Origin: Tubulanus polymorphus
Taxonomy: Eukaryota > Animalia > Nemertea
Length of the DNA: 64,000 nt
Direction of reading: 5' to 3'
Assembly (NCBI RefSeq): GCF_964204645.1
Contig: NC_134028.1
Location: forward strand, 12,881,263 to 12,945,262
Each line of letters opens with the position of its first letter. The first letter of the stretch is position 1. Below are positions 1 to 30,439 of this stretch, piece by piece. The position numbers and the translations under genes were made by a program. Below the pieces are notes generated by a model. It saw only the letters and a program-made list of their open reading frames with translations. It was not told the DNA's origin and searched no databases.

Positions 1-393
1 CTATCTAGGAATGATTTATTGTTCTCACTGTGTACTTGTTTACTCTCCATTTAAATATATAATTTTTTATTAAAATTGCTTTCATTAATATTAATATAAT
101 ATTCATAAATATGATATTCATATATATGGAATAACCTAGTAAGTGTAGTTAGGTCGTTTCAGGTCAGAGGTTGAAATAAGAGTGAATAAAGTGTGAATAA
201 GAGTGAATAAAGAAAACAAATATAAAAAGTAATTTTACTTTCTAACTATAATATATATTCATAGTCGTGTGTATTCCTAGGTAATAATTATCAGAATAAA
301 TTAATATAATTAGAATAGATTTAATTATTTAAATCTATTCTATTGTGTATTGAAATTAAATCAGTTGAAAGCGGAGCAATTGATTTAATTGAT
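1..393 (-). mobile_element. Fragment D of a related Polinton-like element: 5' end of the MESKQ gene (ATG at 48-50, minus strand) next to a diverged, half-truncated terminal hairpin (138-390)
   Basis: 1-50 is the reverse complement of MESKQVHSENNKSFLD. 138-390 resembles the inner arm and apex (GCGGAGC at 371) of the hairpins at 27152 and 61880. Confidence 0.65.
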
Positions 394-582: not shown

Positions 583-870
583 AGTAATAGGGAATATGGG
601 GGTTCAGGCCAAAGGTCGAAGGGTCGAGCTCATAAGAAATGAAAAATAAATTCTCCCACGCTCGAATTTATTTTTTTTTACTCACTCACCCCTTTAACCT
701 GAACCCCCATATTCCCTATTACTCCTAATAATTTCATATAAATGAATATTTTATAAATGAATAACTTCTAAAATCAATTTTAATAAAAAATTTGATATTA
801 AAATGGAAGCAAATAAGAAGTACTACTGTCCAACATGTAAAAAAGAAATACATAAATGTGATACAACTGA
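583..870 (+). mobile_element. Fragment E: Polinton left end with a 141-bp hairpin (583-723) and a pPolB start stub (ATG 803, MEANKKYYCPTC)
   Basis: agtaatagggaatatgggggttcagg...cctgaacccccatattccctattact; same apex type as element C; followed by the leader seen upstream of pPolB. Confidence 0.85.
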
Positions 871-2594: not shown

Positions 2595-2989
2595 AGTAAT
2601 AGGGATAATAGGCTTTCAAGCCAAAGGTCGAACGGTCGAGCTCATTAAAAAACAAAACATTAAAAGTAATTTAAAACTATAATATATTTTCATATTTATT
2701 ATTAATATTATTTTATATTATAACTAAATATTTATTCTAAGATATCAATAATTTAAAAAGCATATTGTATTAAATCAATTGGTCGCTACCGCTCCGCGAC
2801 CAATTGATTTATTTACAATACACAAATTCATATAATCAAATATATTCAAATAATAATAATTATTCTATTATTCAACTGAAATACACACGGTTATGAAAAT
2901 ATATTATAGTTTTAAATTACTTTTAATATTTGTTTTTAATGAACTCGACCATTCAACCTTTAACCTGAAAGCCTATTATCCCTATTACT
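2595..2989. repeat. A left terminal hairpin (type I)
   Basis: Imperfect palindrome agtaatagggataatagg...cctattatccctattact with apex ggtcgc...gcgacc. Confidence 0.95.
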
Positions 2990-3191
2990 CTTAAAATATT
3001 CATGTAAATGAATAACATTTAGATTGACAGATTATTCAATATAAAAGTGTATATTTACAACATTATTTCAATATTTATATTTGTGTGAGTTAGATTTTAA
3101 ACATTAAAAGTGTTAGTAAAGTGTGATTGAAATAATGCATGATATAAATAATTGAACTTCTAAAATCAATCTTAAAAAATTTAGTATTAAA

Positions 3192-6100
3192 ATGGAAGCA
3201 AATAAGTACTTCTGCCCAACATGTAATATCAATATAGATAAATCCCAAAAAGCAAGACACAATAAAACTAAAACACATTTAGAGAATCAATTGAAACTAG
3301 AATATAAAGATGATATATTAGAAACTAAATTAGATGAATTAAAGAATGAAAAAGAAACATACAAATGTGATACATGTAATCAATCATTCAGTGATAAAAG
3401 ATATTATAATGAACATTTAAAATCTAAAAGTCATATTAGAAATAAGAATAATGATATTTTAGGTGAGGATTATTTTGATGAAGATAACGATAAGAAACAT
3501 AAGACAATTAAAAGAATAAGAAATAAATTAAACAATAAAAGACCATACATGGAAGATGTAAGAAAATATATTAATTCATTAGATAATAAAAAAGATATAG
3601 AGATAACCGAAGCATTTAAAAGTGATATTGGTCCAGCAGCTATCGAGTTTAAATTTCATAAAGGAAAAACATTAGAAGAAAATAAAAAACATTTAGAAAA
3701 TATGAAAAATATTATAAAAATAATTACTGATGTTGAATATCCTAAAATTAGTATATCAGTTAAAGTTAAATTCATAAAATCTGAAAATAAACCAATATAT
3801 AATATAAATTCTCATTCACAACATATTATTTCAAAACAACATATAGATGATAAATTAGATAAATGTTATAATGAAGTAAAAACTAAAATAGAAGAGAAAT
3901 ATTTTGAAGGGTCTGGTTTAATATTTGATGAGATAATATTTATGACTTAACATGTTTATAACACAAAATATAATAAGTTAACTAAATCAAAACCAATTGA
4001 TGAAAATAATGTATCATATTATAAAGAACCAGATATTGAAGCATCCAGTTATATTAAACTACCACTTAAAACTAATGCTGTTATAATTGTACAAATTGAA
4101 GATGATAAATGTTTTCTATGGGCTATAATTAGTTGTTTACACCCAGTTGAAGATTATAAACAACATAGTTTTAGATTAACTCATTATAAACAATTTGAAA
4201 ATAATTATAAGATAGATAATTATCCTGTTATAATTAAAAACGTCCCAAAAATAGAAAGAGATAATAATTTAAGAATAAATGTATCTGAGTTAATCAAATT
4301 ACCAAATACAAAAGGTAACAACATAAAACATTATACATTAGAACCTTTATATCTATCAAAAGATTATGATTCAAATGATGTTATAGATATACTATATTAT
4401 GAGAATCATTACATGAGGATTAAACAAATAGATTTATTCTTTAGAACAGAAAGTGATCACCATAATAAAATATATCTATGTAGAAAATGTTTACATAGAT
4501 TCAGTAATGAAAGTACATTATTTAATCATAAACAATTATGTGAAAATCATGATTATTGTAAATTAGTTTTACCAAATGAAAAGGATAAAATATTAGAATT
4601 CAAAAAATATGATTACAAAAATAAAGTACCATTTGTAATATATGGAGATTTTGAATCATTAAATAAAGAATTAACTGATCAAGAAAGAAAAGAAATATAT
4701 TATAAAAGAAAGAAATTAAATTCTAATGAAAATGATTTTTCAGATGAACCACCAAAAACAAATACTATTAAAAAGATTCATCAATCAGCTGCAGCTTTCG
4801 GGTTATATATAAAATCTGATTATCCGGAACTAATTAAAAGTGAATATTATCATTATAGAAATGAAAATGTTATCAATCATTTTTTGTGACTTATTAATTG
4901 AATATGAAATAAGATTTAGTAAATTATTGAATACAAATATAGAAATTATAATGACAGAAGAAGATAAAGAAGAATTTGCGTTTGCAGATAAATGTTATTA
5001 TTGTGAAAAGATATTTAATTATAAAGATAAAAAAGTAAGAGACCATGATCATTTGAATGGAAAGTTTAGAGGCGCTGCACATGAGAATTGTAATTTACAA
5101 GCTAAGAAAATTAATTTTGTGCCAGTTATATTTCATAATCTATCAGGATATGATGCACATTTATTTATCAAACAGTTATGCCATAAAATAGAAGAAATTA
5201 ATAATGAAATAGAAAGATTAAATTCAAATAGATCAAGAGATAAAATACCAACTTATAAATTTAAAATGTTAGCTAAAGCATCTGAGAATTATATATCATT
5301 CCAATTTGGTTGCCTAAGATTTATAGATTCATATAGATTTTTAAATAGTTCATTAGATAACTTATCAAAATCATTAGTTGATGATGAATTAAAAATATTA
5401 AAACAACACTACCCAAATAATGATGACTTTAAATTAATGAGATATAAAGGAGCAATTCCATATTCTTTCTATAAAAATCATAATGATTTCAATATAACTG
5501 AATTATTAAAAGAACAATTCTATGATGAATTAAAAAATGAATATGTTAAAGATGAAGTCTATAATAGAACATTGAATATTTGGAATCATTTCAAAATAGA
5601 AAATCATGGGCAATTAGTAGATATATATTTAAAATCAGATGTATTATTATTATCGGATATATTCGAAAGGTTTAGAGATGTAAACCTAAAATATTTCAAT
5701 ATTGATCCTTGTCATTGTTATTCTAGTCCAGGTTTAACATGGGATTGTGGTTTAGAATTTACAGATATAAAAATGGATTTGTTAACAAATATAGATCAAT
5801 TACTATTATTTGAAAAATCTATAAGAGGAGAAGTTTCAGGTGTATTAGGTGATAGATATTTCAATGTAAATGATAACCCTGGATATAAGTTATTATACAT
5901 TAGATGCAAATAATCTATATGGTTGGGCAATGATGGAACCACAACCTTATGGAGTATTTGAAATAAGTGAAGTTTTACAACATGAAAATAATGATAAATT
6001 TGATTGGAAGAAAAGAATCCTAGATATTGCAGATGATTCAGAGACTGGTTACTTCTTTGTTGTAGACTTGGAATATCCTGAAGATGAAAAATTTAAATCT

Positions 6101-6534
6101 AGAAATCTAGCTTACTGTCCCGAACATAAAACTGTAACTCATGAAGAATTATCAAATTATCAAAAAAGAATTAAACCCGAAAATCATATTCATACAGAAA
6201 AGTTAATGGTAACTCAGGAAGATAAATATAATTATGTAGTACATTATAGAATGTTAAAGTTTTATTTGAATCAAGGAATGATTCTAAAAAAAGTACATAG
6301 ATATATTTCATTCAGTCAATCTAAGTGGTTAGAAAAATATATAGATTTTAACACCAAACAGAGAACTGAAGCTAAAACTGATTTCGAGAAAGATTTCTTC
6401 AAGTTAATGAATAATGCATTCTATGGTAAGACTTGTGAAAATATTAGAAATAGAAATGATATTGAGTTAGTTAGTAATGGCAAAAGGATAAGGCATTTAC
6501 AATCATATCCTAAGTTTTTAGGTAACAGAATATA
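3192..6534 (+). pseudogene. A protein-primed DNA polymerase B, 5' part (stop and frameshifts; interrupted by B)
   Basis: Fragments align with 23397-27071: C2H2 fingers, YGDFES, DANNLYG, KLMNNAFYGK. Confidence 0.95.
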
Positions 6535-6939
6535 AGTAATAGGGGTAATGGGCTTTCAGATCAAAGGTCGAACGGTCGAGCTCATTAAAAAACAAAACAT
6601 TAAAAGTAATTAAAAACTATAATATATTTTCATAACCGTGTGCATTTTATATTAAAAACTAAATATTTATTCTAAGATATCAATAATCTAAAAAGCATAT
6701 TGTATTAAATCAATTGGTCGCTCCACTTCGCCACCGCTCCGCTCCGCGACCAATTGATTTATTTACAATACACAAATTCATATAATCAAATATATTCAAA
6801 TAATAATAATTATTCTATTATTCAACTGAAATACACACGGTTATGAAAATATATTATAGTTTTTAATTACTTTTAATATTTGTTATTAATGAAATCGACC
6901 ATTTAACCTTTGATCTGAAAGCCTATTATCCCTATTACT
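6535..6939. repeat. B terminal hairpin (type I)
   Basis: Imperfect palindrome AGT...ACT. Confidence 0.95.
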
Positions 6940-7019
6940 CTTAAAATATTCATATAAATGAATAACATTTAAATCATTGAACTTCTAAAATCAATTTTAA
7001 TAAAAAATTTAGTGTTAAA

Positions 7020-7271
7020 ATGGAAGCAAATAAGTATTACTGCCGAACATGTAATATCAATGTAGATAAATCCCAAAAAGCAAGACACAATAAAACTAAA
7101 ACACATTTAGAGAATAAATTGAAATTAGAGTATTTACAGTTATATTCAGAACAGTTAACAAAAGCAAAGAAATTTATTGAATTATGGAATAATGATCCAA
7201 ATAATGAACAATACGTTGAGGAATTTGATGTCAAGGAATCGAAACAATTTATCAAAAGCAGCGAGGAGTGA
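7020..7271 (+). CDS. Chimeric mini-ORF: pPolB N-terminal Zn finger fused to an HNH-protein C-terminal tail
   Basis: First 38 aa match the pPolB start; LQLYSEQLTKAKKFIELWNN matches the HNH tail. Confidence 0.55.
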   Translation: MEANKYYCRTCNINVDKSQKARHNKTKTHLENKLKLEYLQLYSEQLTKAKKFIELWNNDPNNEQYVEEFDVKESKQFIKSSEE

Positions 7272-7348
7272 AAAAGGATGAAGTTGGTCGAAGAAATGGA
7301 AGAGGATTCTAAAATATTAACCAATTTAGTAAAAAATACATATAATAA

Positions 7349-8025
7349 ATGGAACCAGAACAACCGCAAATTATTAATATTACAAATAACACTGGCGTTA
7401 TAAACATATACTACAAGAAGTGTTCTAAATGTGAATTAGATAAATCATTAACAGAATTTAGTAAGCGTAAGATTAGCAAAGATGGTTTTCAATATTGCTG
7501 TAAAACTTGTACTAAACTATATACCAAACAATATCGAGATAAGATAATATAGAACATTATAATTATTATATGGCAGAATATATGAGAGAACGATATCAAA
7601 CAGATCTTAATTTTAGATTAAAACGATGTTTACGGTCTAGATTAACACAATTATTCAACAAAGAAACACATTCAGAAACACTATCTAATCTATTGGGTTG
7701 TTCAGATGAATTCTTAAAATCATGGATAATATATCAATTCGACGATAAAATGAATATAGATAATTATGGGGATTATTACCATATTGATCATACGTTACCG
7801 ATTTCTAAATTTAACATGAATGATGAATACAATAAAAAACTTATTTCGAATTGGAAGAATTTAAGACCTTTAGAAAATAAGGAAAACATAATTAAATCTA
7901 ATAAACTAGATTTACAGTTATATTTAGATCAACTGGATAAAGCAAAGACATTTGTTGATCAATGGAACAATAATCCAAATAATGAACGATACGTTGAGGA
8001 ATTTATTATCGAGAATCCGAAATGA
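7349..8025 (+). pseudogene. B Zn-finger/HNH endonuclease, frameshifted
   Basis: Two ORFs that join to match 51829-52503. Confidence 0.85.
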
Positions 8026-8296
8026 CTTATCTGGACAGTTATAATTACTGCTCCTAATAGATAGACAATAGTAGTGAGATAATCTAAATCCTAATTTAAA
8101 TAAAAAGTATTAAAAATTACATATCTTCAACTAGCTAGTATTAGTTATTGTTCTTTTTAATACTTTCTTTTCAAAAAGAATACTTTATATCACAATAAAA
8201 AATACTAAAAAAACAATAACTAATACTAAAATTCTTTACCTGGTATCATTTGAAGAATATTTATAATATTTTTTTTGCTTTTTTCCTCTAATATAA

Positions 8297-8905
8297 ATGT
8301 CAAAGAAATCGAGTAAGAATAATATTGATATTGAAAAAACATTAGATGATTTGGGCATTAGTGATAATAAGGATATTCCAACCAAAATTGAAAATAATAT
8401 TCAAGTTAATTGTAATATAGATTATGAATACTATTTATATTGTAAGCATCATCTTGAACTATTGATTGCTGGAGGGAAATCTAAGGATTTCTTGGGAAAA
8501 ATAATAACTTTTCAAGAATTAGATGCTATGAAACCAGATAAAGTAATAAAATATTTTAAGATTTATGAAGAGGCAAGATTAGCTAAAATAAATGATTCTA
8601 TTTCGAATGGTATTGTCAAATGTTATTCTAAGTTATGTAACCAGTTAATACCAATTAATGATGGAAATAAATTATATAGTGATTTGAAAAATGACTACTT
8701 AGTTATGACTGAATTACAAAAATGGGTTGGTTATGCTTCATTTCAATTAGGATCGGTTATGACATTAATTTCTACTGGTGTCATAACATTTTCGAACATC
8801 AAGCCTATGGAATATAAATCAGGTAAGAACGAAACAGATGTACTACAACCAAACGTCGAAACAGAAAATGAATCGGAACAAAAATTAACTAAAATAAATA
8901 AGTGA
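8297..8905 (+). CDS. B hypothetical protein (MSKKS family)
   Basis: Conserved in all three elements. Confidence 0.85.
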   Translation: MSKKSSKNNIDIEKTLDDLGISDNKDIPTKIENNIQVNCNIDYEYYLYCKHHLELLIAGGKSKDFLGKIITFQELDAMKPDKVIKYFKIYEEARLAKINDSISNGIVKCYSKLCNQLIPINDGNKLYSDLKNDYLVMTELQKWVGYASFQLGSVMTLISTGVITFSNIKPMEYKSGKNETDVLQPNVETENESEQKLTKINK

Positions 8906-9257
8906 TACCGTTAAGAAAAAGGCTAGATCCGAGAAACATATTAAATGGGCAAGAGAATTAGGTAAAAGATCTTCAGAATTAAAAAAAGCTAAGAAAAAGA
9001 AATTAACCGATATAAATGAATTATCTGATATTGATTCAAATAATAATCCATCTGATTCTTCTAATGCTGGAAGTAATTATAAATTATATATTACAATTGG
9101 ATTAGTAACAGTTATTATATTATCTGGTGTAATATATAAATCAAAATTCAAATCTGATGATAAATATGATTCCAATGACAGTAAACCTATCATACCAGAA
9201 AATAAGTCAAATGATAAAGTCATTGAAAATAAATCTAAATTATTATTAATGGATTAA
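8899..9257 (+). pseudogene. B basic single-TM protein (MSDGV family), start codon lost
   Basis: Aligns with 50547-50930; ataaataagtgat replaces ataaatgagtgat. Confidence 0.7.
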
Positions 9258-9263
9258 AATAAG

Positions 9264-10366
9264 ATGAAAAAAGAACAATATTTAAGAGATTTATATTATA
9301 ACCCAGAGAGTGAAGTATCATATTCTAACGTTTCAGAATTATGGAATAAAATTAGATCTGATAATGAAAATGGTAATATAAAATATAGTGAATTAAAATC
9401 ATGGTTACAAAATCAACCAACATATCAAATCCACAAGAAAATGAATAAAACTTATTTAACAAGAAAAGTTATGGTTTCATATATCGATCAACAATGGCAA
9501 GCAGATTTAATTGACATGAAGAACTTAGAGGAATACAACAAAGGATATTTCTGGATATTAAATGTTATAGATATATTCAGTAGATACGCATGGTCAATTC
9601 CAATCAAAAATAAAACTGGTATAGAAGTAACAAATGCTTTTAAATCTATATTTAAAGAAGCTATTCCAGATAAGATACAATTTGATGAAGGTAAGGAATT
9701 TTATAACAAACATTTCAAAAAACTATTATCTGATAACGATGTAGACTATTTTTCAATACACTCAGATAAAAAAGCATCTATTATAGAAAGATTTAATAAA
9801 ACATTGAAAACTAGAATGTGGAAATACTTTACTGCTAATGAAACATATAAATATATCGATGAGTCTATAATTATATTAGATGATTTAGTGAAAGGTTATA
9901 ATAATTCTAAACATAGTTCTATAAATATGAAACCTATACAAGCTAGAAAAGAAGATAATTCAGAAATAGTTTGGAATAATTTATATGAAGCGTTTGTTAC
10001 ACATGATTTCGGTGAACCTAGATTCAAAATTGGACAACACGTAAGAATATCTAACTAAGAAAAACATTTTATAAAGGTTATACCCCTAATTTTACAGAAG
10101 AAATATTCAAGATTAAAAAGATAATATTAACTAAACCTTTTGTTTATAAACTAGAAGATCTAAAAGATGAAGAAATATCAGGTTATTTCTATGAACAAGA
10201 ATTATCACTTGTACCAAACCCAGATGAAATAGAATACAAAATAGAAAAAGTATTGAAAACAAAAACTCTTAAAGGGAAAAAGTATTCTTTGGTGAAATAT
10301 AAAGGATACGATGATAAATTTAATGAATGGATTTTATCTAGTAAAATTAAAAGAATAAATGAATAA
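9264..10366 (+). pseudogene. B retroviral-type integrase with C-terminal chromodomain; 1-nt deletion gives a stop at 10056-10058
   Basis: WQADLID, QFDEGKEF, IERFNKTLK; chromodomain in another frame. Confidence 0.92.
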
Positions 10367-10976
10367 AGATTTATTTTTATTTATATTTGAACCGCATAAT
10401 ATGTTAGTTACTGGTGTAACCAATTGTGGTAAAACACATTTCATATTTGATTTGTTAGAAACTATTTATAAGAATCATTTTGATAATATAATATTATTCT
10501 GTCCTACTTATGAAATGAATAAAACATATAACAGAGATATAGTTAAGATAAAAAAGTTTATTATATTAAATCCTAAAACAGTAAAAGAAAATTTAGATAA
10601 TTGTATTAAAATAGCAATTGATATTTATAAAGGATCAAATACATTATTCATTGTAGATGATTGCGCAAATTTACATGATTCAAAAGTTAGAGGAAGTGAG
10701 TTATGTTATTTAGCTTTCTCTGGGAGACATTTCGGGATAACAACATGGGATTTAAATCAAAAATATAATTCAATTGTTAAAGACTTTAGAGAAAACATTA
10801 GATTTCTAGTTTTATTTTATAACAAAAATAAAAAATCTATGCAACAATCATTGGAAGAAAATCAAATTATACCTACTGAATTACATGATGAATATATGAA
10901 TAAATTAAAGAATAATAAAGGTTCAAAATTATTACTGAGACTACAATTTCCCTATGAATATAAATTTATAAAATAA
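10359..10976 (+). CDS. B A32/FtsK-like packaging ATPase
   Basis: Walker A GVTNCGKT, Walker B FIVDD, GRH motif. Confidence 0.92.
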   Translation: MNKDLFLFIFEPHNMLVTGVTNCGKTHFIFDLLETIYKNHFDNIILFCPTYEMNKTYNRDIVKIKKFIILNPKTVKENLDNCIKIAIDIYKGSNTLFIVDDCANLHDSKVRGSELCYLAFSGRHFGITTWDLNQKYNSIVKDFRENIRFLVLFYNKNKKSMQQSLEENQIIPTELHDEYMNKLKNNKGSKLLLRLQFPYEYKFIK

Positions 10977-10993
10977 CTATTTGTATGACTATG

Positions 10994-11100
10994 TATTAGA
11001 TACCCTAATACCTGATACCCCATTAGATACCCTAATACCTGATACCCTTATACCTGATACCCTATTAGATACCTTAAATACTTAAAACCCCCTTTTTTAT
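10994..11100. repeat. Short tandem repeats (GATACCC/TAATACCT) between convergent genes
   Basis: Directly visible; homologous at 48735-48835 and 57015-57090. Confidence 0.85.
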
Positions 11101-11162
11101 TTACTATTATTTTATACAATTTTCAACTAATATTATTATTTGAGTTAAATATAATTAATATC

Positions 11163-11969
11163 TTAATCACTTTCACTATCACTCTCCAATTCACTATCAG
11201 ACCCTAACAATTTATTCAAATGCTCTACCGAATCTACATCAATAGTTGTTTTATTTTTATACTTATTCTTCGCCTTTTTTACCGCATCATCAATAGTTGT
11301 TTCATTGTTATGCTTATTCATCCAATCAAAGTTATCATTATTTTCTACTTTATGTTTCATAGAATCTTTATTAGTGTTTGCTCCTAATATTTCATTTACA
11401 GTGTTTGATTCTAATATTTCATTAGCATCGGTTAGATCTAATTCATCTTTATTAGGTGTTGCTAATAATAAATCTTTATATAATTCTTTACCATTTACTT
11501 TTTGATTTGAAACAAACTTTGTAACATATCTAAATGGGTGTTCTATAAATTCTTTTTTGCCAACACGTTCTATAACATTATTTATATGTACCTTTGTATT
11601 CATATGTTTATTCCAATTTGATGGAGCGTTTGAAAATTCACCTTTACAATAATCACAATAATTTCTATTTTTACTAACATTTAATATTATTGCATTATTA
11701 TATGTAGAAGGTATTACATTATTAGATGTAGTAGGTATTACTGTAGTAGGTATTACTGTAGAAGGTATTACATTATTATCAATTACATTACTTAAATTAT
11801 CAACAACTTCACTTTTATTATTATCGATTTCTATTAGTTTAGTTTTATAAATTTTGAAAATAGGATCAAATATCAAAGCTATATTACAAGGTATTACATA
11901 ATATAAACCATCATTATTTTCATGTGTATCGATGTATGGAATATGTTTATATACTTTACCTCCTTCCAT
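11163..11969 (-). CDS. B Zn-finger protein with VIPST repeats (MEGGK family)
   Basis: CDYC...H...H motif; conserved in A and C. Confidence 0.85.
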   Translation of the reverse strand: MEGGKVYKHIPYIDTHENNDGLYYVIPCNIALIFDPIFKIYKTKLIEIDNNKSEVVDNLSNVIDNNVIPSTVIPTTVIPTTSNNVIPSTYNNAIILNVSKNRNYCDYCKGEFSNAPSNWNKHMNTKVHINNVIERVGKKEFIEHPFRYVTKFVSNQKVNGKELYKDLLLATPNKDELDLTDANEILESNTVNEILGANTNKDSMKHKVENNDNFDWMNKHNNETTIDDAVKKAKNKYKNKTTIDVDSVEHLNKLLGSDSELESDSESD

Positions 11970-12001
11970 TTATTATATATATTTTTATTAAAGTTAAAAT
12001 T

Positions 12002-13249
12002 TTAATACATAACACTATCTAATTGTGAATTTACAATATTTAATTGCGCGTCAGATATAATATAAATATGCATTTTAAAATTTTTGATTCCTTTATTCTT
12101 TGTCATGAATAATTGTATTCCATCTTTAGTGTTTTGTAGTTTTTTTCCAGAACCATGTAATGAATTATCCTCTGTTGTTCTAAAATCTAACCATAATGCA
12201 TATTTATTACCGGTATAATAATCAATTTGATTAATATTACAATTTTCAGATGATTTTACTTTTTCATTCATAAAATGTTTTCTAATTTCTGGCCATTGAT
12301 CAATCATTCTCATTCCTTGACAAAATATTTTATTTGCTATTCCTTCGATAGTTATTTCTACTTTTGTTATTTCAGGATTATAATAATTATCAACATTTAT
12401 TGCGCCATTAGTATATGTTGCAATGGTAAAAAATATTAATATGCCTTTAATAGATCTTCTTGGGAAGTTAATATTCTCATTAATTATTTCATCATTTGCA
12501 TTAATAGTTACGGTTTTGAATTTATCAATATAATCATATAATAATGAAAATCCTTGATTGTATTTAGTTTGAATTAAACTTGAAATATTTTCATCAGTTA
12601 CTGTATCATATTCTTAACATATATTCGATAATTTATAACTCATATCTTTAACAACGCTAGATAATACAATTTCATTTACAGGAGCAAATGTTATTTCGAA
12701 TATAACGTCTTCTTGAATTGCGTATTTATATAAAGGTGCATTATTATTTATCAATTCAAAGTCTAATGGAATTTTATATTTGCTTCCATAAATCTTTTTT
12801 ATCAAATTATCTACAGCATTAGTTACTACTGCATTATTGGCTTCAGATCTTAATTTATTTTGGTTTTCTGATTGGATGCCTTGAAATATCATATTATTTC
12901 TATTTTCTTTAGTTAACCATAAATCTTTATAATGCATAAATAAATTATAATCATCTAATGAGAAAACTGTTTCTGGACCAATCTTTATTGTTAACTTTTT
13001 AATCAAATATCTTCCAACATTATCAACAACATAATTATTATTATTACCGGTTACTTTTATATCGGCCGATAAATGAATACTATTTGGAACATAAAAAGTA
13101 TTTTGTGTTAATCGAGGGATTCTAACGTATAAAGTTTCATCGGGATTAATATTTGAAGGGTTATTAGTAATTATATGATGTGATCTTTCTGCTTTAATAG
13201 CATTAGATATTCTATGATTCTTAGAAGGATTGATATAACTCCCACTCAT
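12002..13249 (-). pseudogene. B major capsid protein (double jelly-roll), disrupted
   Basis: About 415 beta-rich codons; aligns with 46425-47672; break near 12614. Confidence 0.8.
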
Positions 13250-14423
13250 TTATTTAACAAAAAAATTAATTATTTATTTTTGATCATGGTTACTTGATAT
13301 TTTTTGATATCATATTTACTAACCCAAAATAATAGCACTTACAACTGTAATTAAAAATAAAATGATATGTTCAGCAGCAAAGTTAATTATGTTTCCTGCA
13401 GATTTCAATATAAAACCAACAATTGATGCAATAACTCCTGGCAATGCTGCAGCAGATTTCTTTGATAGTTCCCATAAATATTTTGCTAATTTTTAGGCCA
13501 GCCGTAGGCTGAGCCTATTACTATACAAATGGAGCGAATTTAAATAACATGGTTTCCACACAAAAGGCTCTTTTGCTTGCCAAGTGAGGGCATATTCGAA
13601 CAAATCACGTATTTAAGCGTAATCCATTCTCGGAATCGTAGCGAGCAGAATTTTGAAATAGGCTTTCATAAAAATGTTTTCTGCATTTTTCACGAAAGTA
13701 AAATCGGGAAAATTTCAATTTTTATCAGCCAATCAGGAAGTTGTGTCTTCCCTGTGATTGGTTTATCTAAAAATATCAGCAGCTGTTCACGTGAATTATC
13801 GTGATTTCATTACTGGCGCTTTTGCGCATGACGTCATGTATCAACACGCGACAATACTTCCGCGTTCGCTACGTGTTCGCTGATTGGCCCATTTACTGGG
13901 AAATTCCACAGAAGCCTAATGTGGTTTGTTACAAGCGCTGTGATTGGCCCGACCCGATTCTGGCACGGCTTTAGCTTAGTGGGTTCGAATCCCTTGACGG
14001 GAGAAGATGATGGATCCTATCGATGCTATCAACAAATAAGTTTCCCGGTTGGGCAGCTGCGTATATCTACCGAAAGTGTTGCGGTTCGATATTTCGAGGT
14101 TTCTTTGAATTTTGGAGTGATATTGAAATCCGGTAAACACCGGCGGTAGATTGTGAAAACCCATTGCTTGATATTTGTATTACTTAATCAACGAAAAGCG
14201 TCGGGGCCGCGCCAGGAGTTTTCGCGATTCAAGTAGCTCAATATCCTACTTCTTCGTGTTCGTCCACCTCCGCAATTTTCACTCCGCCGATCTCTGACAC
14301 GGCTCTGTCGCCGTCGGCGCTGTAATTGCACTATTCGTACCACCAAAATTTTTTATTTCTATATCAGGGAGGTCTGGAGAAAAAAAAAGTCAAAATTTGG
14401 ATATCACATAGGCCTGATTTCAT

Positions 14424-15709
14424 GCAAAAGGTAGAAAGTTTCTAATGTCCGATCGACAGTACCGGTAGCGCCGCTACTTAGCAATAATAAGAACTAATGT
14501 TATTGACGATGTTTTGTTAAGTGGAAAGACGCCGAGTACCAGTATATATCCGATAGGTTCGAATCCCCAATTTCTTCGGGATGATTTGATTTTAAAATAG
14601 CGATCGTTTTAATAGATTTGGTGTACCTTATTAAACTTACCCACCGTCAACACACCTGCCGGATGTGAAACAGGGGACGTCCTATTCCAATGACGCTAAA
14701 GATTTTGTGTGAATTTTATGGTACTGTAACGGCGGTATGAATTAAATTCAGCTTAGACTGAGAGTAAAGTATTTTAAGGCAAACTCTAATGGGCTAACTG
14801 CACATCGTCGAAAGACTTCTCATCCATCGATACTTGATAAAAATGAAATAAAACATCTAGTTCCAATTATCTCATGTAAGCATAACATTTATTTTGAAAA
14901 TCTCAACCATACATCAAAACATTTTAAAGCCTTCTATATCAAATGCAATCTTTTGCTAACATAAACAATAGACAAATGGCCATATCTCTATCATATTAAT
15001 TATATCACGAATGCTAAATATTGCGATATTAATTGAAATCGTTCAACCAACAAATGAATTTAGTTAATAATATCATCACAAACCATTCATATCCTTGGCA
15101 AAGGACTTATAAGCTTTTAGAATATCCAAACAGGAAAACTTGAGTCTCATTTCTATGCGAGTAGAAATACATAATCATTATCTTTGCATTATATATAACA
15201 TCCATATCTGTGCATTATATATATGTTTATAATGTCATATCTCTTAATAATAATCAATCCAATAATTAGATTAATAATACTAATTTATTTATAAATTAAT
15301 AATTGGTAATTAAACTATCAACTCTGCTATAATTGAGTTACACATGAGGTAAAAAAATTATGACATAAAAACTCCTGTCAGAGTAATAGAAGTAACTGTC
15401 TAATACATGAAATAACACATTTTATACAATGAACTGAGCTCTGAATCTGATGAAAATATTCAATCTGAGATCTTACGAATGATGTTATTTTAGCCCTCTA
15501 CTTCTGAAAACTGAATAGCGCGCTGTGAACTTCAACTTCAAAACAAATTTGTTGAACAGCAGTGTATCGAAAAACTGTACGTACAGTGTACCGCGAACTG
15601 AACGCGGCGTCTTCTCACTTTAGAAAATTATCGACTTGACAGATTAGTTCGATTTTCGACCGCAGCGGCGCTATACGACATTGGACAAAAGAAACTTTCT
15701 ACCTTTTGC
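14424..15709. mobile_element. Non-autonomous TIR transposon, Mutator-like
   Basis: TIR gcaaaaggtagaaagtttct; 10-bp TSD CTGATTTCAT; empty site in copy 2 near 31359. Confidence 0.85.
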
Positions 15710-16273
15710 CTGATTTCATCGAATAAGTCGACCATGGTCGTTACGTTTCCGTACTAATTACCACCTAAAACCGTCTCAACAATTTTGTCACAACCAACAT
15801 TTCGTTTACAGAAATCAGGTGTTCACGTGAACCCGCGGTATCGTCTATTGTTTTACTTCCGGGTTTTATTTTAAGATTTAAAATCGTATTTCAAGATCGA
15901 TTTCTATGAAATCTTTAGTTGATTTGGTGTTTGGGAGGAATTTATATTTGCTCTACAGAAAATTCATCCTTGACAATTGCGCAAGGTTCGCAAAAAATTG
16001 CTTTTCCCAAATCGAGTGTATGAACTTGATATGCTAATTAGCCATGTGCTCGAATTGCAAATTCAATCAAATTTTATTCTGCCAAAAAAATGTTAAATCC
16101 AATTCGCTTTCCGAGAGTTAATGGTATGCTGCATGGAACAAAGTTGTTTTGAGATGGGTCTTGAAGCTATTGAGTCGAGAGATAACCATCTAGATAGTTC
16201 GTAAGAGTTCCAAAGATTTGAAGACGCTTCAAGGTAATGTCTTGATATCTGGTTTATACGTGTATCTACCCTT

Positions 16274-16769
16274 GTCTGTCACACATGCTCTTCGTGCGAC
16301 GTTTTGGTCCGTAGTTTCGTTAATAATCGGTTGATCTGTAAATATTATGCATCAATTTGTTCAGTAAGGAATTTGCATTCAGAAATAAATCATGAACTGG
16401 CAGAAATTTGTTTGTGTTTTCTTCTATCAGCAATAGTTTACCTAGCATACGCTCGCGTAATGCTGAAAAACGGCTTTCATGGCCCGTCACGTGGCGCCAC
16501 CTACTGTATTTTGATATGCTAATGAGCAGGTGATGACGTCACTGTAACGTTTCCGAGCGTCCGCGGAGCGTATTTTTCAGCATTACGCGAGCGTATGCTG
16601 AGTAAACTATCGCTCATAAATGAAAACAAAAACAACTTAAGTGAAAATTGTTGTTTATTTCTGAATGCAAATTCCTCACTGAACAAATTGATGCATAATA
16701 AAGGTAGATAAACCGATTATTAACGAAATTACGGACCAAAACGTCGCACGGAGAGTAGGTGTGACACAG
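16274..16769. mobile_element. Fold-back MITE with about 190-bp TIRs, probable TA target
   Basis: Long inverted arms; absent from copy 2 at ccc-TA-gacac (31921). Confidence 0.8.
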
Positions 16770-17233
16770 TAGACACATCTTCAGGCCAAAAACTGGCCCT
16801 GTCAGATTCAAGATGGCCGACTGGCAGCCATTGTTGTTCGCCAAAATCAGCACTTTTTACACATTTTAGAACTTTTTGAGGGAAATTTTGAAGACACTTT
16901 TATCAATAACCTTGATAGTTCGTATATATTTGTATCCCCCAAGGGCCCATCGGCATGAGAAAAATTGGGTCGATCGGACTCAAGATGGCCGTCCTGTGAC
17001 CTTTTTTGTTCCCAAAAATGTTAATTTTGGCCTGAATTCTGAGTCCTGTAGCTTTCTAATGGTGTGCAATTTTTCATTGCAATTTGTAATGGGTATTCTT
17101 TGGAAAGGGATCTTTTATATCCGAGAGGGTATTTTTGACCAGGCAATTATGACGTAATTGGCGGCCATCTTGGGGTCATCAGTACTCATTCGTAGGTGGA
17201 AAAAAAGTTTTGCCACATCATTTTGATACTTTA

Positions 17234-17534
17234 GCATATTTTGCTACCATAATTAATTGGAAAGTCGTAGCTCATGACATGTTCTATGATTGAGGTGAGT
17301 TTCAAGCTCATTGGTTTTTGTTTATGGCCACCAGGGGGCGTTGAACAATACAATAACTTAGTATTTCTATATTACATTCGTACCTATGCATATTTTGCTA
17401 CCACAATCAATTGGAAAGTTGTAGCTCATGACATGGTCTATGATCTTGGTGAGTTTCAAGCTCATTGGTTTTTGTATATGGCCACCAGGGGCGTTGAACA
17501 ATACAATAACTTAGTATTTCTATATTACATTCGT
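17234..17534. repeat. Two tandem copies of about 150 bp inside the HINE (also 32385-32684)
   Basis: gcatattttgctacca...tattacattcg repeated. Confidence 0.9.
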
Positions 17535-18973
17535 TCCTGTTGTCTGTGTTAACACACGATTGTACTATGTAAATGACATTGAGCAGGGAGTGTATATTGA
17601 TAAATATAACCCACAGATTACATCATTTATAAAAAGCAAATCTGACAGGCTGGCCATTGTGCCCCTTGGGGCTCTTGTTTTAAACCATCCTTAACTTTAT
17701 CTTGTATAGAATTATTATCATTCGGGGGTTTATCTGGTTTATTGGGAGTAGGAGTAGATTTCAAAGCATTTGATATAGCTAAACCTATTGTTGTAAATAA
17801 CATAGTTACAGCTGTTAGAATTGAAAGAATTGTTATTCCTTCAAACTTAAATAATAATTTTATTCTATCTTTCAATGATATGTCAGAATTTGGTTTTAGT
17901 ATTAACTCTTTAACAACAACTTTAAATCTATTAATACAATAATCATATGATTTTAATAATAATTTCATTTTTTCTTTCTGAAATTCTGTGTTATATTCTA
18001 AATCATCAATTTCTTTTTCTAAATATGCATTTCTTTTTTTAAATTCAATTTCTTCAATAACTTTAAATTCTCTATCTAATTTTAATTGTTCTAATTCTTT
18101 TCTGGTGTCAAATAATTTATTTTCTAAAGGTTTAATTTTATTATATCTAATATGTTTTTCGCGCGCAATTTTATCGGCTTCATTTCGTATACTTATTATT
18201 TCTCTAATTGTTTTTTTAGAAAACATACTTAAAGCTTCTATTTCTTGACCTGTTGCATCAAGTAATCCATTCGGTAAAAGTTTTTCAGTTTGAACTTCAG
18301 TGTTTGATTTAAGTTTACTAGTTTTTGAAGTTTTATTCTGTTCAGAAGTTGTTTCTGTTTCTGGATTATCTTTGATTGTTTCAAATAACTTATTAATTCT
18401 TTGTTTAAATACTCTTTTATTTTTATCAGTTAATAATTCTTGTGTTACATCTTCTATTTCATTACCATTTCTTATTATTTTAATTCTAGATAGTAATGAG
18501 TGAGACTTAAGCAAAGTTGATTTTGCTACTATTTTGTCTTCATTTTTATTAGAGATATCAATATAATAATCATCTTTCAAATGATAATAATATTCACAAT
18601 CTAAAAACTTTAATTTTTTTACTAAAAATCTGGCGACTTTATCATTTATATTATATCCAGATTCTTTAAATACATGTTGAAATTCATACGTAAATTCATA
18701 ATTTTCTAAATTTTCTCTTTCTAAACCTGGATTTAAATTTTCAGTAGGTATTCTCGATCTTGTTCTTCTATCAAATTTATCTGTTGATGGGGCTTTAGAA
18801 CCACTATCTGCTATATTAGAATTATATGCTGATTCATCATCATTATCAATATTAGTTTCATTAAAATTAGCACCTGCATCATTATAATCATCATCAATAT
18901 ATCCTTCATTATCCTTCCCCTGTTTTCCATTGGAAAATCTTCTCCACCTTCTGCCATTTACATAATACAAAAA

Positions 18974-20357
18974 TTAAAATTTAAAATATAATATTCCTCC
19001 GATTACAATTCCTATACAAGTTATAGCTAATTTAGTATTTTCATGGGATTTATTATCATCATTAGTTTTAATTATATCATGTTGAATAATATCAGTTCTA
19101 TTATTTTCTGATGTATTGTAATCTTTTATTTTAGAATCATTATTTAATTTAATATTATTAGTTTTAGTTTCAGTTGATTGAATGTGTTTTTTATTTTTTT
19201 CACCTTCCATTAATTTTGGAGCAGTGATAATCTTTTTATTTATATCATTCAATCCAAATGAATTATTTATTGTTGCAGTTTTAATTAGATTATTATAACC
19301 AATTATGTTTCCCATCTTTAATACTAAATCATTAGAAATAATTAATAGATTAGGGCCTATACAATAATTAAGCCTTACATGAGATTTATCTAAATAATTT
19401 TGATATCTTATTTTCTGGAATCGATCTATTTTTATCATTATGAATTGAATCTTCAAATAAAACTTTAAATTGTTTTTGTGTATCGAATGATGTATTCAAA
19501 TTTCCAATTATCGGTGATCTTGTTTCAACTTGTGATCCTAGAATACAAATCAAATAAGTTCTAATAGATTGATTTATTCTTTCTATACCTGATTTTGTAA
19601 AACCTTCACTATTTTCTAAAATAAAATAAACCCAACCATTATTGTTTTCTTGTTTTAAATGATCATAAAATTTCGGTAATTTATTGAAATGTAATGTTTC
19701 TAAATCCTTAGTTTCTATTTTACCATAACCTAATTTATTATTATAGATATTATAAAAACTATTAGATGGTATGGGAAGTGCACAATATTCTGCAATCTTT
19801 TTAGGGCAAGGAAGTGATCTTATTGTTCCAATTTTTGTTCTAAAATCAGAATTATTTATATCTATATTAAATTCATTACAAATTTTATAAAACTTTGATA
19901 AATTAATATTATTATCTAATTCTTTAAAATATCTAGATCGTGGTAAAGCGCACTCTAATTCATTTAATATTATTCTGATTTGAAAGTATGTATGAAATCT
20001 AAATAAACTTTGAATTAGTTTATATTTAGAATTATTCAAATGATCATTCCAACTAATTCCACAACCTGTTGTTGAACAATAAACAGCAAAATTTAATTGG
20101 TTCTGCCAATACTTCATATTAGATTTTAATAACCATTGTTTTTCATCTTTCAATTTTTTAAAATTAATTAAATATACATGAAATATATTTTCCATCTTTG
20201 CATTAAAATTATTAGTTTCAGTAACATAAATTTCTAAATTAGTTAATGAATTTAAAACTTCATTTCTATATGTAATATCTTTATTAAAATCTATTGCTGG
20301 AATATTATATTTAATTGATTTATTATATTGGAAAGCTTTTGGAAAACTATCTACCAT
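18974..20357 (-). pseudogene. B conserved virus protein with C-terminal TM (WQNQLNFAVYC family), frameshifted
   Basis: Aligns with 43310-44698. Confidence 0.85.
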
Positions 20358-20373
20358 TTATATAATTAAAAAA

Positions 20374-20817
20374 TTAATAATTTATTAATTCTTTTAATAC
20401 TTTAATGCTTAAATCTTGTTCTTCAACTGTTATATGACCATTTAAACTTATGATATAATCTAGTGTGTTCTTTAATTTATTAATTTCTTTTATATTAGTT
20501 TTAATTTTTTCTTTATTACTTTTTATATTTAATTTTGAACTTATACCGGTTAAAACACTTGAACTTAATCCTAACACACCAATTGATATAGCTAAAGGTG
20601 TTAATGGGCTGAATATTGCTAGAAATATTATTACAGAACTAATTGTAACCGAACCATTTATAATCAAATAATATATAATTTTAGATTTTAAATATTTTTT
20701 CTTTTTTATCTTTAAATCACTTTCAAATTATAATATTTGTTTTTCTAAATATGTTTTTAATTTAGTTTTATTTATATCACGAGGAATAATATCAATACTA
20801 TCAACTTTATCTTCCAT
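20374..20817 (-). pseudogene. B two-TM coiled-coil protein (MEDKV family), internal stop
   Basis: Aligns with 42859-43293. Confidence 0.8.
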
Positions 20818-20837
20818 TTATTTAGAAAAAAAAATTA

Positions 20838-21260
20838 CTAATTAGTAAACTTATAAGCAACAAATATAACAATAACTGTTCCACCTAAAATCCATATTAT
20901 TTCATATTTCTTCTGTTCATTACTTGGGGTATAATAATCTGATAATTTAGGTTTGTATAGATGTAATTTTTCTTTATTGGTTACTGCGTTATATAAACTC
21001 ATTGCATCATCAACTGATTGAAAATCTCTATGTGAATTCTTCTGATTATATAATTCTTTATTGATGTAATCCATATAGTTTTGTCTCTTTTCTCTATATT
21101 CTTCCACAGCTTTATTATATTTCTCTAATGCTAAATTATGTCTTCTTTGTTCTCCTAATGAACTATTTTTATCAATATGTTTAAATAAATAACCACCACC
21201 AGTAAATGTTAAAGCGTTAACAATTGCCGATCCTATAATAGTTATAATTGCAGAAGCCAT
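20838..21260 (-). CDS. B membrane protein (MASAII family)
   Basis: Hydrophobic N- and C-termini; three conserved copies. Confidence 0.85.
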   Translation of the reverse strand: MASAIITIIGSAIVNALTFTGGGYLFKHIDKNSSLGEQRRHNLALEKYNKAVEEYREKRQNYMDYINKELYNQKNSHRDFQSVDDAMSLYNAVTNKEKLHLYKPKLSDYYTPSNEQKKYEIIWILGGTVIVIFVAYKFTN

Positions 21261-21284
21261 TTATTTAGCAAAAAAATTATGTAT

Positions 21285-21506
21285 TTATATGGGAGGAATA
21301 TATTTTTGTTTTTCTAAATAATCAATAGTTAAATTAGATAAAGTAACTGCTAATGTTAATTTTAAAATATCATTTATATCAAATCTATCAACATTAACAC
21401 TTCCCATTTTAAATACTTTTTTTAATACCATTGAATAACCAACAGTTCCAACTGATAGTAATGCTCCATTATATAATCCAGTTATTATCCACTTATTATC
21501 ACTCAT
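21285..21506 (-). CDS. B 73-aa hydrophobic protein (MSDNK family)
   Basis: Identical protein in A, B and C. Confidence 0.85.
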   Translation of the reverse strand: MSDNKWIITGLYNGALLSVGTVGYSMVLKKVFKMGSVNVDRFDINDILKLTLAVTLSNLTIDYLEKQKYIPPI

Positions 21507-21863
21507 TTATTTATCAAAAAAATTACTATCATCAAAATATTTAGTTATCTTATTTATGATTAATTCAACATTTATTTCATTACTAGTTTCATTTGTATAT
21601 ATTTCAATTATTATTTTTTTAATATCATCGATGATAAAATCTTCATCTAATTCATAAAATCTTAAAGATTCTCTAATTAAATTAGTAATCTTTTCTACAT
21701 TTAAAGTTTCTTTATCTATTGTTGTTTCATACTCAAATGTTGTTTCATTAGAAAATGCAATATTTTTAATATGTGTAATTACATCATTAATGTTAAATTT
21801 CATTTCTTTCTCACGTTTAAAATCAAACCCAAAACTTATACTCGGTCCAACAGTTATATTCAT
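21507..21863 (-). CDS. B acidic hypothetical protein (MNITV family, 118 aa)
   Basis: Three conserved copies. Confidence 0.8.
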   Translation of the reverse strand: MNITVGPSISFGFDFKREKEMKFNINDVITHIKNIAFSNETTFEYETTIDKETLNVEKITNLIRESLRFYELDEDFIIDDIKKIIIEIYTNETSNEINVELIINKITKYFDDSNFFDK

Positions 21864-21879
21864 TTATATAATGAAAAAA

Positions 21880-22638
21880 TTACTCTTTACATCTTATAAC
21901 TAATTCATATATTACAGGAAAGTTATTCAAATCAAGTAAATAACCATTATGATTTCTTATTTCTAATTTAAAATTATTAAATTGAGGAATACAAGGTTTG
22001 AAATCACATTCAGTTAAATTATAATTTATTTGCGTTCCAAATTGTTTAACATTTTTCAGCGGTAAAATATTTAATATACTAGAATTACATGTTGTATCTT
22101 TAGTTGCTTCAAATGTTTTTGTAGGATCAATTAAATTGCAATCAATATAAAAGTGTGTAAAAGGTATTATATTTGAAATGCCTTCTACGTTTACTGTAAC
22201 AACATCTGGTTCAATTCCTAGCAATTTAGCTATAGGTTTTTTTACTATAAATGCATGTTGACTTTCATCAAATACCTTTATTTTAATTCTATTTGAGCTA
22301 TCACTTTTTATAAATCTAATTAAAAATTTATCATCTTTTCTAATTTTCAACCGTGCTCTACGATTAATTTCTTGAGATAATGTTTCTAAATTATATAATC
22401 CTGGTCTTAGATAAAGATGAAACCATTTATTTATATTTCTAATATGAATTGAAAAAGTATTATGTTCAATAGTTTTATTCGATATATTGTAAAAAGAATT
22501 ACATAAACTTATATTAACTAATTTTAAATCTACGCAATTTTTATATTCTCTATCTAATTGTACTAATAAATTATGTGATTTATAATTTGTAAGTTTTCTA
22601 GTCTCTACAAATATTCTGTATTCTTTTAATTCCGCCAT
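21880..22638 (-). CDS. B minor capsid (penton) protein
   Basis: NSFYNI..PGLYN..FYIDCNLI..LEIRNHNG.LLDLN..IYELVI pattern of Polinton pentons. Confidence 0.8.
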   Translation of the reverse strand: MAELKEYRIFVETRKLTNYKSHNLLVQLDREYKNCVDLKLVNISLCNSFYNISNKTIEHNTFSIHIRNINKWFHLYLRPGLYNLETLSQEINRRARLKIRKDDKFLIRFIKSDSSNRIKIKVFDESQHAFIVKKPIAKLLGIEPDVVTVNVEGISNIIPFTHFYIDCNLIDPTKTFEATKDTTCNSSILNILPLKNVKQFGTQINYNLTECDFKPCIPQFNNFKLEIRNHNGYLLDLNNFPVIYELVIRCKE

Positions 22639-22655
22639 TTATTTTACATATTTTC

Positions 22656-23009
22656 TCATTCGAAATCTATTTCATGGTGCCCTTTTTCATTCCTACCTTT
22701 GTATACGAAATAGAAATCTCCAGAACATAATTCTTCTAAATCTTCACTTGATAATCTATGAAATCTATCCGGTAAATATGTTCTGAATTTATATGTATTT
22801 CCTTTTAATCCTTCATATTCTAAGTGTATAACTAATTTATCTCCATAGTTATTAGTAACTGTATCAATATTTGTAATTAGATATTTCTTATGGATTGTTA
22901 ATTCTGTTAACTTTTTGAATTTATAATCTACAGATTTTACATTTGTAGTATATTTAATTCTATCTAGAAATGATTTGTTGTTCTCACTGTGCGCTTGTTT
23001 ACTCTCCAT
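22656..23009 (-). CDS. B putative OB-fold nucleic-acid-binding protein (MESKQ family)
   Basis: FKKLTEL..KKYLI..NYGDKLVIHL..YLPDRF; fold inferred; sits next to pPolB. Confidence 0.65.
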   Translation of the reverse strand: MESKQAHSENNKSFLDRIKYTTNVKSVDYKFKKLTELTIHKKYLITNIDTVTNNYGDKLVIHLEYEGLKGNTYKFRTYLPDRFHRLSSEDLEELCSGDFYFVYKGRNEKGHHEIDFE

Positions 23010-23038
23010 TTAAATAACATATTTTTATTAAAATTTGA

Positions 23039-27071: not shown

Positions 27072-27151
27072 TTTAATACTAAATTTTTTATTAAAATTGA
27101 TTTTAGAAGTTCAATGATTTAAATGTTATTCATTTATATGAATATTTTAAG

Positions 27152-27555
27152 AGTAATAAGGATAATAGGCTTTCGGGTTAAAGGTTGAATGGTCGAGTTC
27201 ATTAAAAACATATATTAAATGTAATTAAAAACTATAATATATTTTCATAACCGTGTGTATTTCAGTTGAATAATAGAATAATTATTATTATTTGAATATA
27301 TTTGATTATATGAATTTGTGTATTGTAAATAAATCAATTGGTCGCGGAGCGGAGCGGTAGCGAAGTGGAGCGACCAATTGATTTAATACAATATGCTTTT
27401 TAAATTATTGATATCTTAGAATAAATATTTAGTTTTAATATAAAATACACACTGTTATGAAAATATATTATAGTTTTTAATTACTTTTAATATTTTGTTT
27501 TTTAATGAGCTCGACCCTTCGACCTTTGATCTGAAAGCCTATTATCCCTATTACT
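27152..27555. repeat. B terminal hairpin (type I)
   Basis: Imperfect palindrome; inverted copy of 6535-6939. Confidence 0.95.
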
Positions 27556-28237: not shown

Positions 28238-28266
28238 TCAAATTTTAATAAAAATATGTATTATAA

Positions 28267-28608: not shown

Positions 28609-28636
28609 ATTTCGAATAAGAAAATATGTAAAATAA

Positions 28637-29389: not shown

Positions 29390-29405
29390 TTTTTTCACTA
29401 TATAA

Positions 29406-29708: not shown

Positions 29709-29762
29709 ATCATCACTAAGATAACTAAATATTTTGATGATAGTAATTTTTTTGATAAATAA

Positions 29763-29984: not shown

Positions 29985-30008
29985 ATGCGTAATTATTTTG
30001 CTAAATAA

Positions 30009-30431: not shown

Positions 30432-30439
30432 TAATTTTT

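Follow-up and report, generated by a model that had tools for sequence, protein, structure and literature searches.

The seven complete termini of a cluster of nested Polinton copies, located in the 64,000-nt stretch of DNA analysed here (the window), all start with AGT, finish with ACT and form a fold-back that is flush with the element end. The sequence-only reading had described these termini as self-complementary from the terminal AGT to an internal ACT, and sequence comparison together with folding confirms this in seven of seven cases. The sequences indicate that the hairpins are maintained: the interiors differ between hairpin types yet remain self-complementary, letters covary between the two arms and the G·T mismatches are one-sided.

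A Nested Polinton Cluster and Its Genes

The window carries the Polintons A, B and C, a truncated fourth copy and the remains of an older end (Table 1). Self-comparison shows two interruptions of A: B lies within its pPolB, and C where its major capsid gene begins. B and C have each landed in a core gene of an older copy of their own family, which makes this a nested Polinton cluster. The TSDs of B and C had been taken to confirm that the outer AGT/ACT is the true element end; this holds perfectly for C and nearly so for B, and A has no matching TSD. The flanks of A (2340-2594 and 62272-62480) resemble by eye the same host repeat, yet without a TSD; recombination between two insertions may have produced A.

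Table 1. Nested elements, terminal fold-backs and genes of the window, and fold-back ends of two relatives (window positions unless a locus is named).
Feature	Position	Strand	Remarks
Outer Polinton A	2595..62271	+	TIR 457 nt, 93.8%; no matching TSD
Left terminal fold-back of A, ~400-nt type	2595..2989	+	sequence, folding and reads
Right terminal fold-back of A, ~400-nt type	61880..62271	-	sequence and folding
Nested Polinton B	6535..27555	-	TIR 599 nt, 95.8%; TSD 5/6
Terminal fold-back of B	6535..6939	+	inner-arm positions 26-28 match outer arm, likely converted
Terminal fold-back of B, pPolB side	27152..27555	-	
Nested Polinton C	36272..54678	+	TIR 435 nt, 100%; perfect 6-bp TSD
Terminal fold-back of C, 266-nt type	36272..36537	+	
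Terminal fold-back of C	54413..54678	-	identical to the left one
Shortened fold-back of truncated fourth copy	583..723	+	private letters at positions 11-20 in both arms
Degenerate older (eighth) end	32..377	-	inner arm and centre only; 68% to the end of B
pPolB of B, longest open frame, 1224 aa	23397..27071	-	
rve integrase of C	49764..50543	-	PF00665, E 1e-9
rve integrase of B	9264-10058		second copy, PF00665
Packaging ATPase of B	10359..10976	+	Pox_A32, E 2e-9
Major capsid protein of C	46425..47381	+	Capsid_N E 0.001-0.006, below cut-off; 29-36% to four relatives
Stand-alone HNH/EndoVII-like nuclease of C	51829..52503	-	phrog_1035, E 4e-18
Stand-alone HNH/EndoVII-like nuclease of A	57255-57908		
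Terminal fold-back of L118, 129 nt, AGTAGT...ACTACT	L118:5614-5742		flush palindrome, z -10.3 and -12.8
Plausible end of L080	L080:292-456		inverted tip copy 16/20 nt, 165 nt inside; weak third case

The Polinton identity proposed for these elements is supported by a pPolB (Pfam DNA_pol_B_2) with TP and vOTU domains, an rve integrase, an A32 packaging ATPase and a capsid protein, and at the ends by TIRs of 435-599 nt, AGT termini and a 6-bp TSD (6/6 in C). Polintons/Mavericks, as presented in the available text of 10.1101/2024.03.18.585575 and PMC8097293, share the TP-vOTU-pPolB, rve, A32 ATPase, capsid, TIRs, AGT and 6-bp TSD. The window elements differ in that their TIR starts with a palindrome made by an internal repeat and in that no maturation protease was found. 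Neither Pfam/NCBIfam nor motif searches gave a match to an adenain/Ulp1 protease inside A-C, where several ORFs are without assignment, and none is evident among the ORFs of the partial relatives L011, L025 and L035, which have the same gene set. The window elements and these three loci possibly form a protease-less subgroup. HUH Rep/NS1 proteins and protelomerases gave no Pfam match in 46 of the 48 ORFs of at least 120 aa, the other two being short antisense ORFs.

The pPolB of B comprises zinc fingers, a terminal-protein-like domain, a vOTU domain, an EndoVII-like insert, an exonuclease and a polymerase. It ends early and one of its catalytic motifs is altered; the pPolB genes of A and C are in pieces, all three window copies being damaged. 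The right-hand TIRs of B and C contain the first pPolB codons (7020-7130 and 54244-54332), so that the same putative promoter region points inward at both ends of these elements.

Geometry and Folding of the Termini

The TIR of each of A-C opens with a palindrome of 266-405 nt that repeats the terminal sequence internally, and the hairpins lie, as had been claimed, within the longer TIRs. Folding the TIR ends as ssDNA, a check proposed at the outset, gave -39.5 to -113.2 kcal/mol for the seven termini, far below the shuffle means of -12.6 to -27.2 (15 shuffles each). In the predicted folds 74-91% of the bases are paired, the first base pairs with the last, and the 3′-terminal T is placed flush on the internal template at seven of seven ends. 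The minus strand of 2595-2989 has a z of -20.2, and none of 100 shuffles matches its energy. A window-wide scan for 24-nt inverted repeats at most 450 nt apart returned eight matches, the seven termini and one unrelated MITE-like insert. The scan and the shuffle tests together rule out chance folding of low-complexity DNA. Insertion of a MITE at the ends is ruled out as well: all seven termini continue inward into the same body sequence, fewer than 329 reads pass from the inner ACT into other DNA, and the fold-back behaves neither as a unit with its own TSD nor as one with solo copies.

There are two hairpin types, one of ~400 nt (at 2595, 6535, 27152 and 61880) and one of 266 nt (at 36272 and 54413); the fold-back at 583-723 is a shortened relative of the 266-nt type that lost part of its inner arm. 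The two types have the first ~50 nt in common and differ in their interiors, each of which is self-complementary. Within one copy, the two arms scarcely differ over their first ~24 bp. The hairpins are nevertheless imperfect, the ~400-nt type pairing only over approximately the outer 100 bp and a central stem. In five of the seven ends the hairpin is situated ~80 nt upstream of the pPolB start. An Rfam search of the hairpin ends gave no match, and a sigma-70 scan, whose bacterial consensus is irrelevant to a eukaryotic element, stayed at chance level.

Raw-Read Support

Raw reads, another proposed test of the hairpins, came from an Illumina DNA run labelled with the same species (X5; 150-nt reads, ~12% of the run read). 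They cover the tip, the centre and the inner junction of the hairpin, although no 150-nt read links both arms. At the end of A, where 30 of 30 bins are covered, 1,947 + 453 reads extend past the tip, and the flanking DNA they enter is heterogeneous (agreement 0.34-0.35). At the end of C 1,898 reads do so, with a depth of ~800 in the body and ~2,500 in the outer arm. Many insertion sites therefore have the tip as the real element end. In X5 reads, molecule ends did not pile up at either of these termini. The raw-read support, four elements and two sequence types rule out an assembly artefact.

The depth of the inner arm is 0.62-0.74 of that of the outer arm at positions 11, 16 and 25; put the other way, the outer arm (2595-2650) is ~1.4-1.6x deeper than the inner arm (2935-2989). 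Some genomic ends may thus be devoid of an inner arm, and the candidates for the outer-arm excess are such ends, a sister family or fully palindromic derivatives. The earlier claim that every end of the family is a hairpin stands for all complete ends of the window; genome-wide it applies to most ends and, given the inner-arm deficit, probably not to all. The reads also contain further deletion variants and strand-switch joints. Among them, 81 reads (52 starts) change strand just beyond the centre of the 266-nt hairpin (36419/36427), representing either a re-folded variant or a library chimera.

Orientation, Arm Coupling and Strand Bias

The central loop and the arm asymmetries point one way in seven of seven ends, a count that covers four elements and two hairpin types and includes pairs of ends from one element, which are not independent of each other. 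In the reads, a flipped end would bring letters of the inner type beside host DNA and leave loose ends behind the inner ACT (2989); this site is not among the six listed, which sets it below 329 reads against 2,400 at the tip and the share of the opposite (flop) form at ~12% or less. The changes at positions 35 and 39, which tell the arms apart, do not appear in 40 of 100 rows, each with a share of at least ~19%; the limit that this sets assumes a ranking of the rows by share. In vaccinia, according to the available text of PMC8956199, flip and flop forms are equal after resolution. The fixed orientation disfavours symmetric nick-and-transfer or Holliday-junction resolution, since these predict both forms, and weakens self-priming, which keeps a low probability because some parvovirus ends exist in a single form only, as the available part of PMC8242256 reports.

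The letters of the two arms vary together. In the reads variants have similar shares in outer and inner arms (55/59% at position 11, 52/47% at position 16 and 23/19% at position 25), and the 583 copy carries its private letters in both arms. In B, the variant at positions 26-28 is present in both outer arms but in one inner arm only, and position 26 is altered in 43% of outer versus 29% of inner reads. This one window copy and the read shares suggest that the outer arm is the source and the inner arm the recipient of copied letters. Both hairpin types have the mismatches at positions 27, 28, 35 and 47 in common, and outer-type letters occur in inner-anchored reads at 32% for position 28 and 20% for position 47.

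Each of the 13 distinct transition mismatches that are established puts a G·T pair on the 3′-terminal strand (p = 2e-4). Seven of them are found in at least two ends of the ~400-nt type, three more belong to the 266-nt type (two identical ends) and three to the relative L118; the sites are not fully independent. Six private singleton mismatches divide into two that favour the 3′-terminal strand and four that favour the opposite one, bringing the total to 15/19 (p = 0.02). The 3′-terminal strand is lower in energy in eight of eight hairpins, one of them by only 0.4 kcal/mol. Selection for folding and strand-specific cytosine deamination would both give such a bias, and since both imply that the 3′-terminal strand is single-stranded or folded, this strand would be singled out in either case.

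Fold-Back Ends in Relatives

Three scans yielded 149 related loci (80 of 559 metagenome matches, 23 viral and 46 genome-bin). Most of them stop before the element ends, including the closest ones, L001 (75%) and L002 (59%). Nine loci have a plausible terminus, chosen by the AGTAGT motif and its position, and both TIRs are present only in L040. The best inverted match of the first 20 nt covers 19/20 positions in L118, 16 in L080 and 10-14 in the other seven (L114 with an N gap). Seven of the nine plausible ends thus lack a fold-back, in agreement with the view that hairpins are not routine in this group.

In L118, host-like DNA is followed by the flush palindrome and, 150 nt inside, by a pPolB that is 34% identical to that of the window and has an unbroken frame of 1248 aa. 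Its 3′-terminal strand also folds better (-42.8 vs -33.5). The genome bin carries only one end of the element; the contig, filed in an archaeal MAG, probably represents host contamination. Strong hairpins near, but not flush with, ends or pPolB starts are found at L040:250-415, L033:134-192, L073:1045-1216, L018:1-90 and L109:8186-8344; subterminal hairpins look commoner than flush ones.

A quick pPolB tree of 42 rows, omitting L100 and L140 that have no unbroken frame, places the window, L118 and L080 in separate starred groups. Fold-back ends do not cluster on it (3 changes vs 2.7 when shuffled), a scatter that fits repeated gain or repeated loss. Judged from these loci, the flush fold-back design is neither routine nor unique. 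In viral contigs, end-motif searches returned no match in one case and two matches in another, and integrase and capsid queries led to no confirmed loci.

The pPolB Domains and Possible Protein Priming

A structure model of pPolB residues 110-460, built with 51 sequences (pLDDT 83.9), led to two domain assignments with middling fold-match Z values of 6-8. Residues ~130-260 match the little-finger/PAD fold of Y-family polymerases (Foldseek E 3e-3; Z 8.1, rmsd 2.8, 104 aligned), and residues ~292-410 match viral OTU proteases (Z 6.3, rmsd 2.7, 93 aligned). These matches are those described for the Polinton TP and vOTU domains in the available text of 10.1101/2024.03.18.585575, where the predicted linking residue is placed between helix 2 and strand 4. 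In the model, Ser241 lies in the loop between these two elements and is kept in 49/51 rows, while Cys307 and His403 of the vOTU domain are each kept in 50/51 rows. Because the polymerase has kept the TP domain, including the predicted linking Ser, as well as the vOTU residues Cys and His, protein priming looks available to it according to the model.

The EndoVII-like domain had been put forward as a candidate hairpin resolvase. It lost its value as a marker: the motif is general to homologs, with 109 of the 120 top ones and 64 of 103 loci carrying it (many loci being incomplete), and the aligned domain is also present in L040 and L033, neither of which has a terminal fold-back. Nuclease domains are already known in nematode pPolB2, as stated in the available part of 10.1101/2023.08.22.554363.

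Replication Model and Alternatives

Strand-displacement replication by pPolB systems frees a full single strand. In adenovirus the displaced strand pairs both genome ends in the ITR panhandle and provides a duplex origin for TP priming. The elements described here would be alike in regenerating a duplex origin from a displaced strand; adenovirus pairs two genome ends, whereas each end of these elements would rely on its own local, inverted origin copy. The hypothesis that we prefer, at somewhat less than an even chance, is that the folded 3′ end of the displaced strand mimics a duplex origin for protein priming. This 3′ end would fold onto the inner arm 130-400 nt away, and the resulting stem would equal the normal duplex end over its first ~24 bp, rebuilding the origin. 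The TP-fused pPolB would prime the next strand there and copy the outer arm, the loop, the inner arm and the body. The local hairpin would replace or back up the long-range TIR panhandle of adenovirus-type replication. Copying from the tip inward would preserve orientation and require no resolvase. Now and then, template switching at the fold-back would carry letters near the tip into the inner arm from the outer one, and extension of the paired 3′-OH would at times yield by-products, namely snap-back dimers or foldback defectives.

The steps that we infer here are the single-stranded intermediate and the primer chosen. The origin-mimic model would explain the duplicated origin core and the better-folding 3′ strand, and the flush geometry, fixed orientation, strand bias, arm coupling, kept TP/vOTU residues and recurrence in L118 all speak for it. 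Its weak point is that the 3′-OH, paired flush, would itself readily serve as a primer. Moreover, the TP and vOTU domains are general to such polymerases and their retention may fit initiation at open duplex ends only; the G·T bias could have arisen through strand-specific cytosine deamination instead of selection; and the fact that most relatives with a visible end (7/9) do without a fold-back, as well as the absence of a molecule-end pile-up in the reads, count against the model.

That paired 3′-terminal T had suggested self-priming to the sequence-only reading, within a hybrid hairpin/pPolB replicon. In its developed form, which we consider unlikely, the 3′ hairpin would self-prime and protein priming at the open end would give a head-to-head dimer that is cut on one arm only; the cutter, putatively the integrase, the HNH nuclease or the EndoVII-like domain, would be guided by the fixed mismatches, and one orientation would be integrated. 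The flush geometry, present in 7/7 ends, holds, and the 3′-terminal strand is the better folder. The fixed mismatches flanking an identical core are reminiscent of the bubble at the left end of parvoviruses, and the outer-type letters in inner-anchored reads could include head-to-head junctions. Both hairpin-ended elements bear a stand-alone HNH gene, the two belonging to different families. The ends of MVM are resolved asymmetrically. An outcome in one orientation has its parallel in the single-form parvovirus termini mentioned in the available part of PMC8242256. What speaks against self-priming is the absence of flip/flop, the apparent availability of protein priming, the missing match to an HUH Rep or protelomerase (46/48 ORFs) and the generality of the EndoVII-like motif (109/120 homologs, and the domain in the fold-back-less L040 and L033); the scheme also requires an additional, unobserved asymmetric step. 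Its extension to several animal-type Polinton lineages, with self-priming from the 3′ hairpin, restart by the TP and one-arm resolution by integrase or HNH, appears improbable to a like degree.

The two other explanations dispense with a priming role. One copy-back event could have duplicated the terminus in inverted form, the palindrome persisting as a selfish or neutral relic with no replication job; we find this quite unlikely, and have equally little confidence in its persistence through hairpin-driven template switching and TIR homogenisation. Such a relic would account for the free turnover of interiors, which show two types in the window and, in the reads, deletion variants along with strand-switch joints, and for the patchy distribution on the quick pPolB tree, but the mismatches at 27, 28, 35 and 47 shared by both types imply that arm correction is not pervasive, and neither the one-sided G·T bias nor the exact flush design in L118 is predicted. 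The hairpins could alternatively protect the 3′ ends of single strands, serve packaging, integrase action or excision, or act as RNA in outward or antisense transcripts, where G·U pairs would form. This too has a low probability in our estimation. It is consistent with the same strand bias and conservation and with the hairpin upstream of the pPolB start in 5/7 ends, and mismatches of vaccinia telomeres serve virion maturation in the account available from PMC8956199; by itself it demands neither flush pairing of the last base nor an inner-arm copy of the origin core, and Rfam gave no match.

Relation to Known Systems

The sequence-only reading knew of no description of such a replicon for integrase-bearing Polintons. 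The idea of tip palindromes with hairpin priming is, however, already in print, in a July 2026 preprint, for integrase-bearing protist virophages and PLVs mostly lacking pPolB. In Halocafeteria seosinensis, TIR palindromes lie beside the TSD in virophage subtypes 1, 2, 5 and 6 as well as PLV subtype 4; they go with RVE integrases and, by preference, with replication genes other than pPolB, and hairpin priming has been proposed (available text of 10.64898/2026.07.28.741278). The window elements resemble this type in the palindrome inside the TIR next to the TSD and in the RVE integrase. They differ in belonging to an animal rather than a protist, in hairpins 5-8x longer than the 52 nt of the example available from that source, and in being pPolB Polintons with a TP domain, a fixed orientation and strand-biased mismatches.

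For animal pPolB Polintons, no description of flush terminal fold-backs was found in the literature searched, which excluded subscription journals and Repbase reports, nor was any earlier description of the orientation and strand-bias evidence for such ends. The word "hairpin" is missing from the main text of 10.1101/2024.03.18.585575 and PMC8097293, and "palindrome" from PMC8097293. The available parts of PMC12721341, PMC8502044, PMC6431247, PMC11296320 and 10.1101/2023.08.22.554363 do not treat Polinton terminal hairpins, and the hairpins in the available text of 10.1101/2022.05.25.493380 are protein beta-hairpins. Internal palindromes in casposon TIRs are mentioned in the portion of the literature available.

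Parvovirus ends are alike in their imperfect terminal palindrome of 130-400 nt, flush 3′ pairing and fixed bubbles (available part of PMC8242256); the window elements differ from them by having no HUH Rep/NS1, their own protein-primed polymerase, an integrase with TSD and no flip/flop. Poxvirus telomeres share AT-rich mismatched fold-back ends, but they are covalently closed, with equal flip and flop after Holliday-junction resolution (available part of PMC8956199), whereas here integrated copies have open duplex ends in one orientation. As putative counterparts of the poxvirus junction resolvase, sequence analysis points to the EndoVII-like domain, which is general to these polymerases, and the HNH gene.

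Polinton replication has so far been modelled, never observed. The internal inverted copy of the origin and the folding bias of the 3′ strand constitute sequence-level evidence for a single-stranded intermediate. As a substrate the hairpin end is short and defined, and the predictions that protein priming and self-priming make for it are opposite. Its recurrence in L118 and in protist virophages/PLVs suggests a recurrent end design overlooked by TIR annotation. If the hybrid replicon were true, protein-primed and hairpin-primed replication would be united in one genome, opening a path by which hairpin-ended DNA viruses and foldback defective elements could have arisen from Polintons.

Other Features of the Cluster

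A ~2.4-kb non-coding insertion, 98% identical between its copies, is found at different places in B (13487-17681) and A (30432-32832). The copy in B hosts two inserts: one at 14424-15707 with inverted ends and a 12-nt direct repeat, the other, at 16273-16769, a ~0.5-kb MITE-like element. In C, the non-coding part near the right TIR contains tandem units of ~119 nt (52650-53200).
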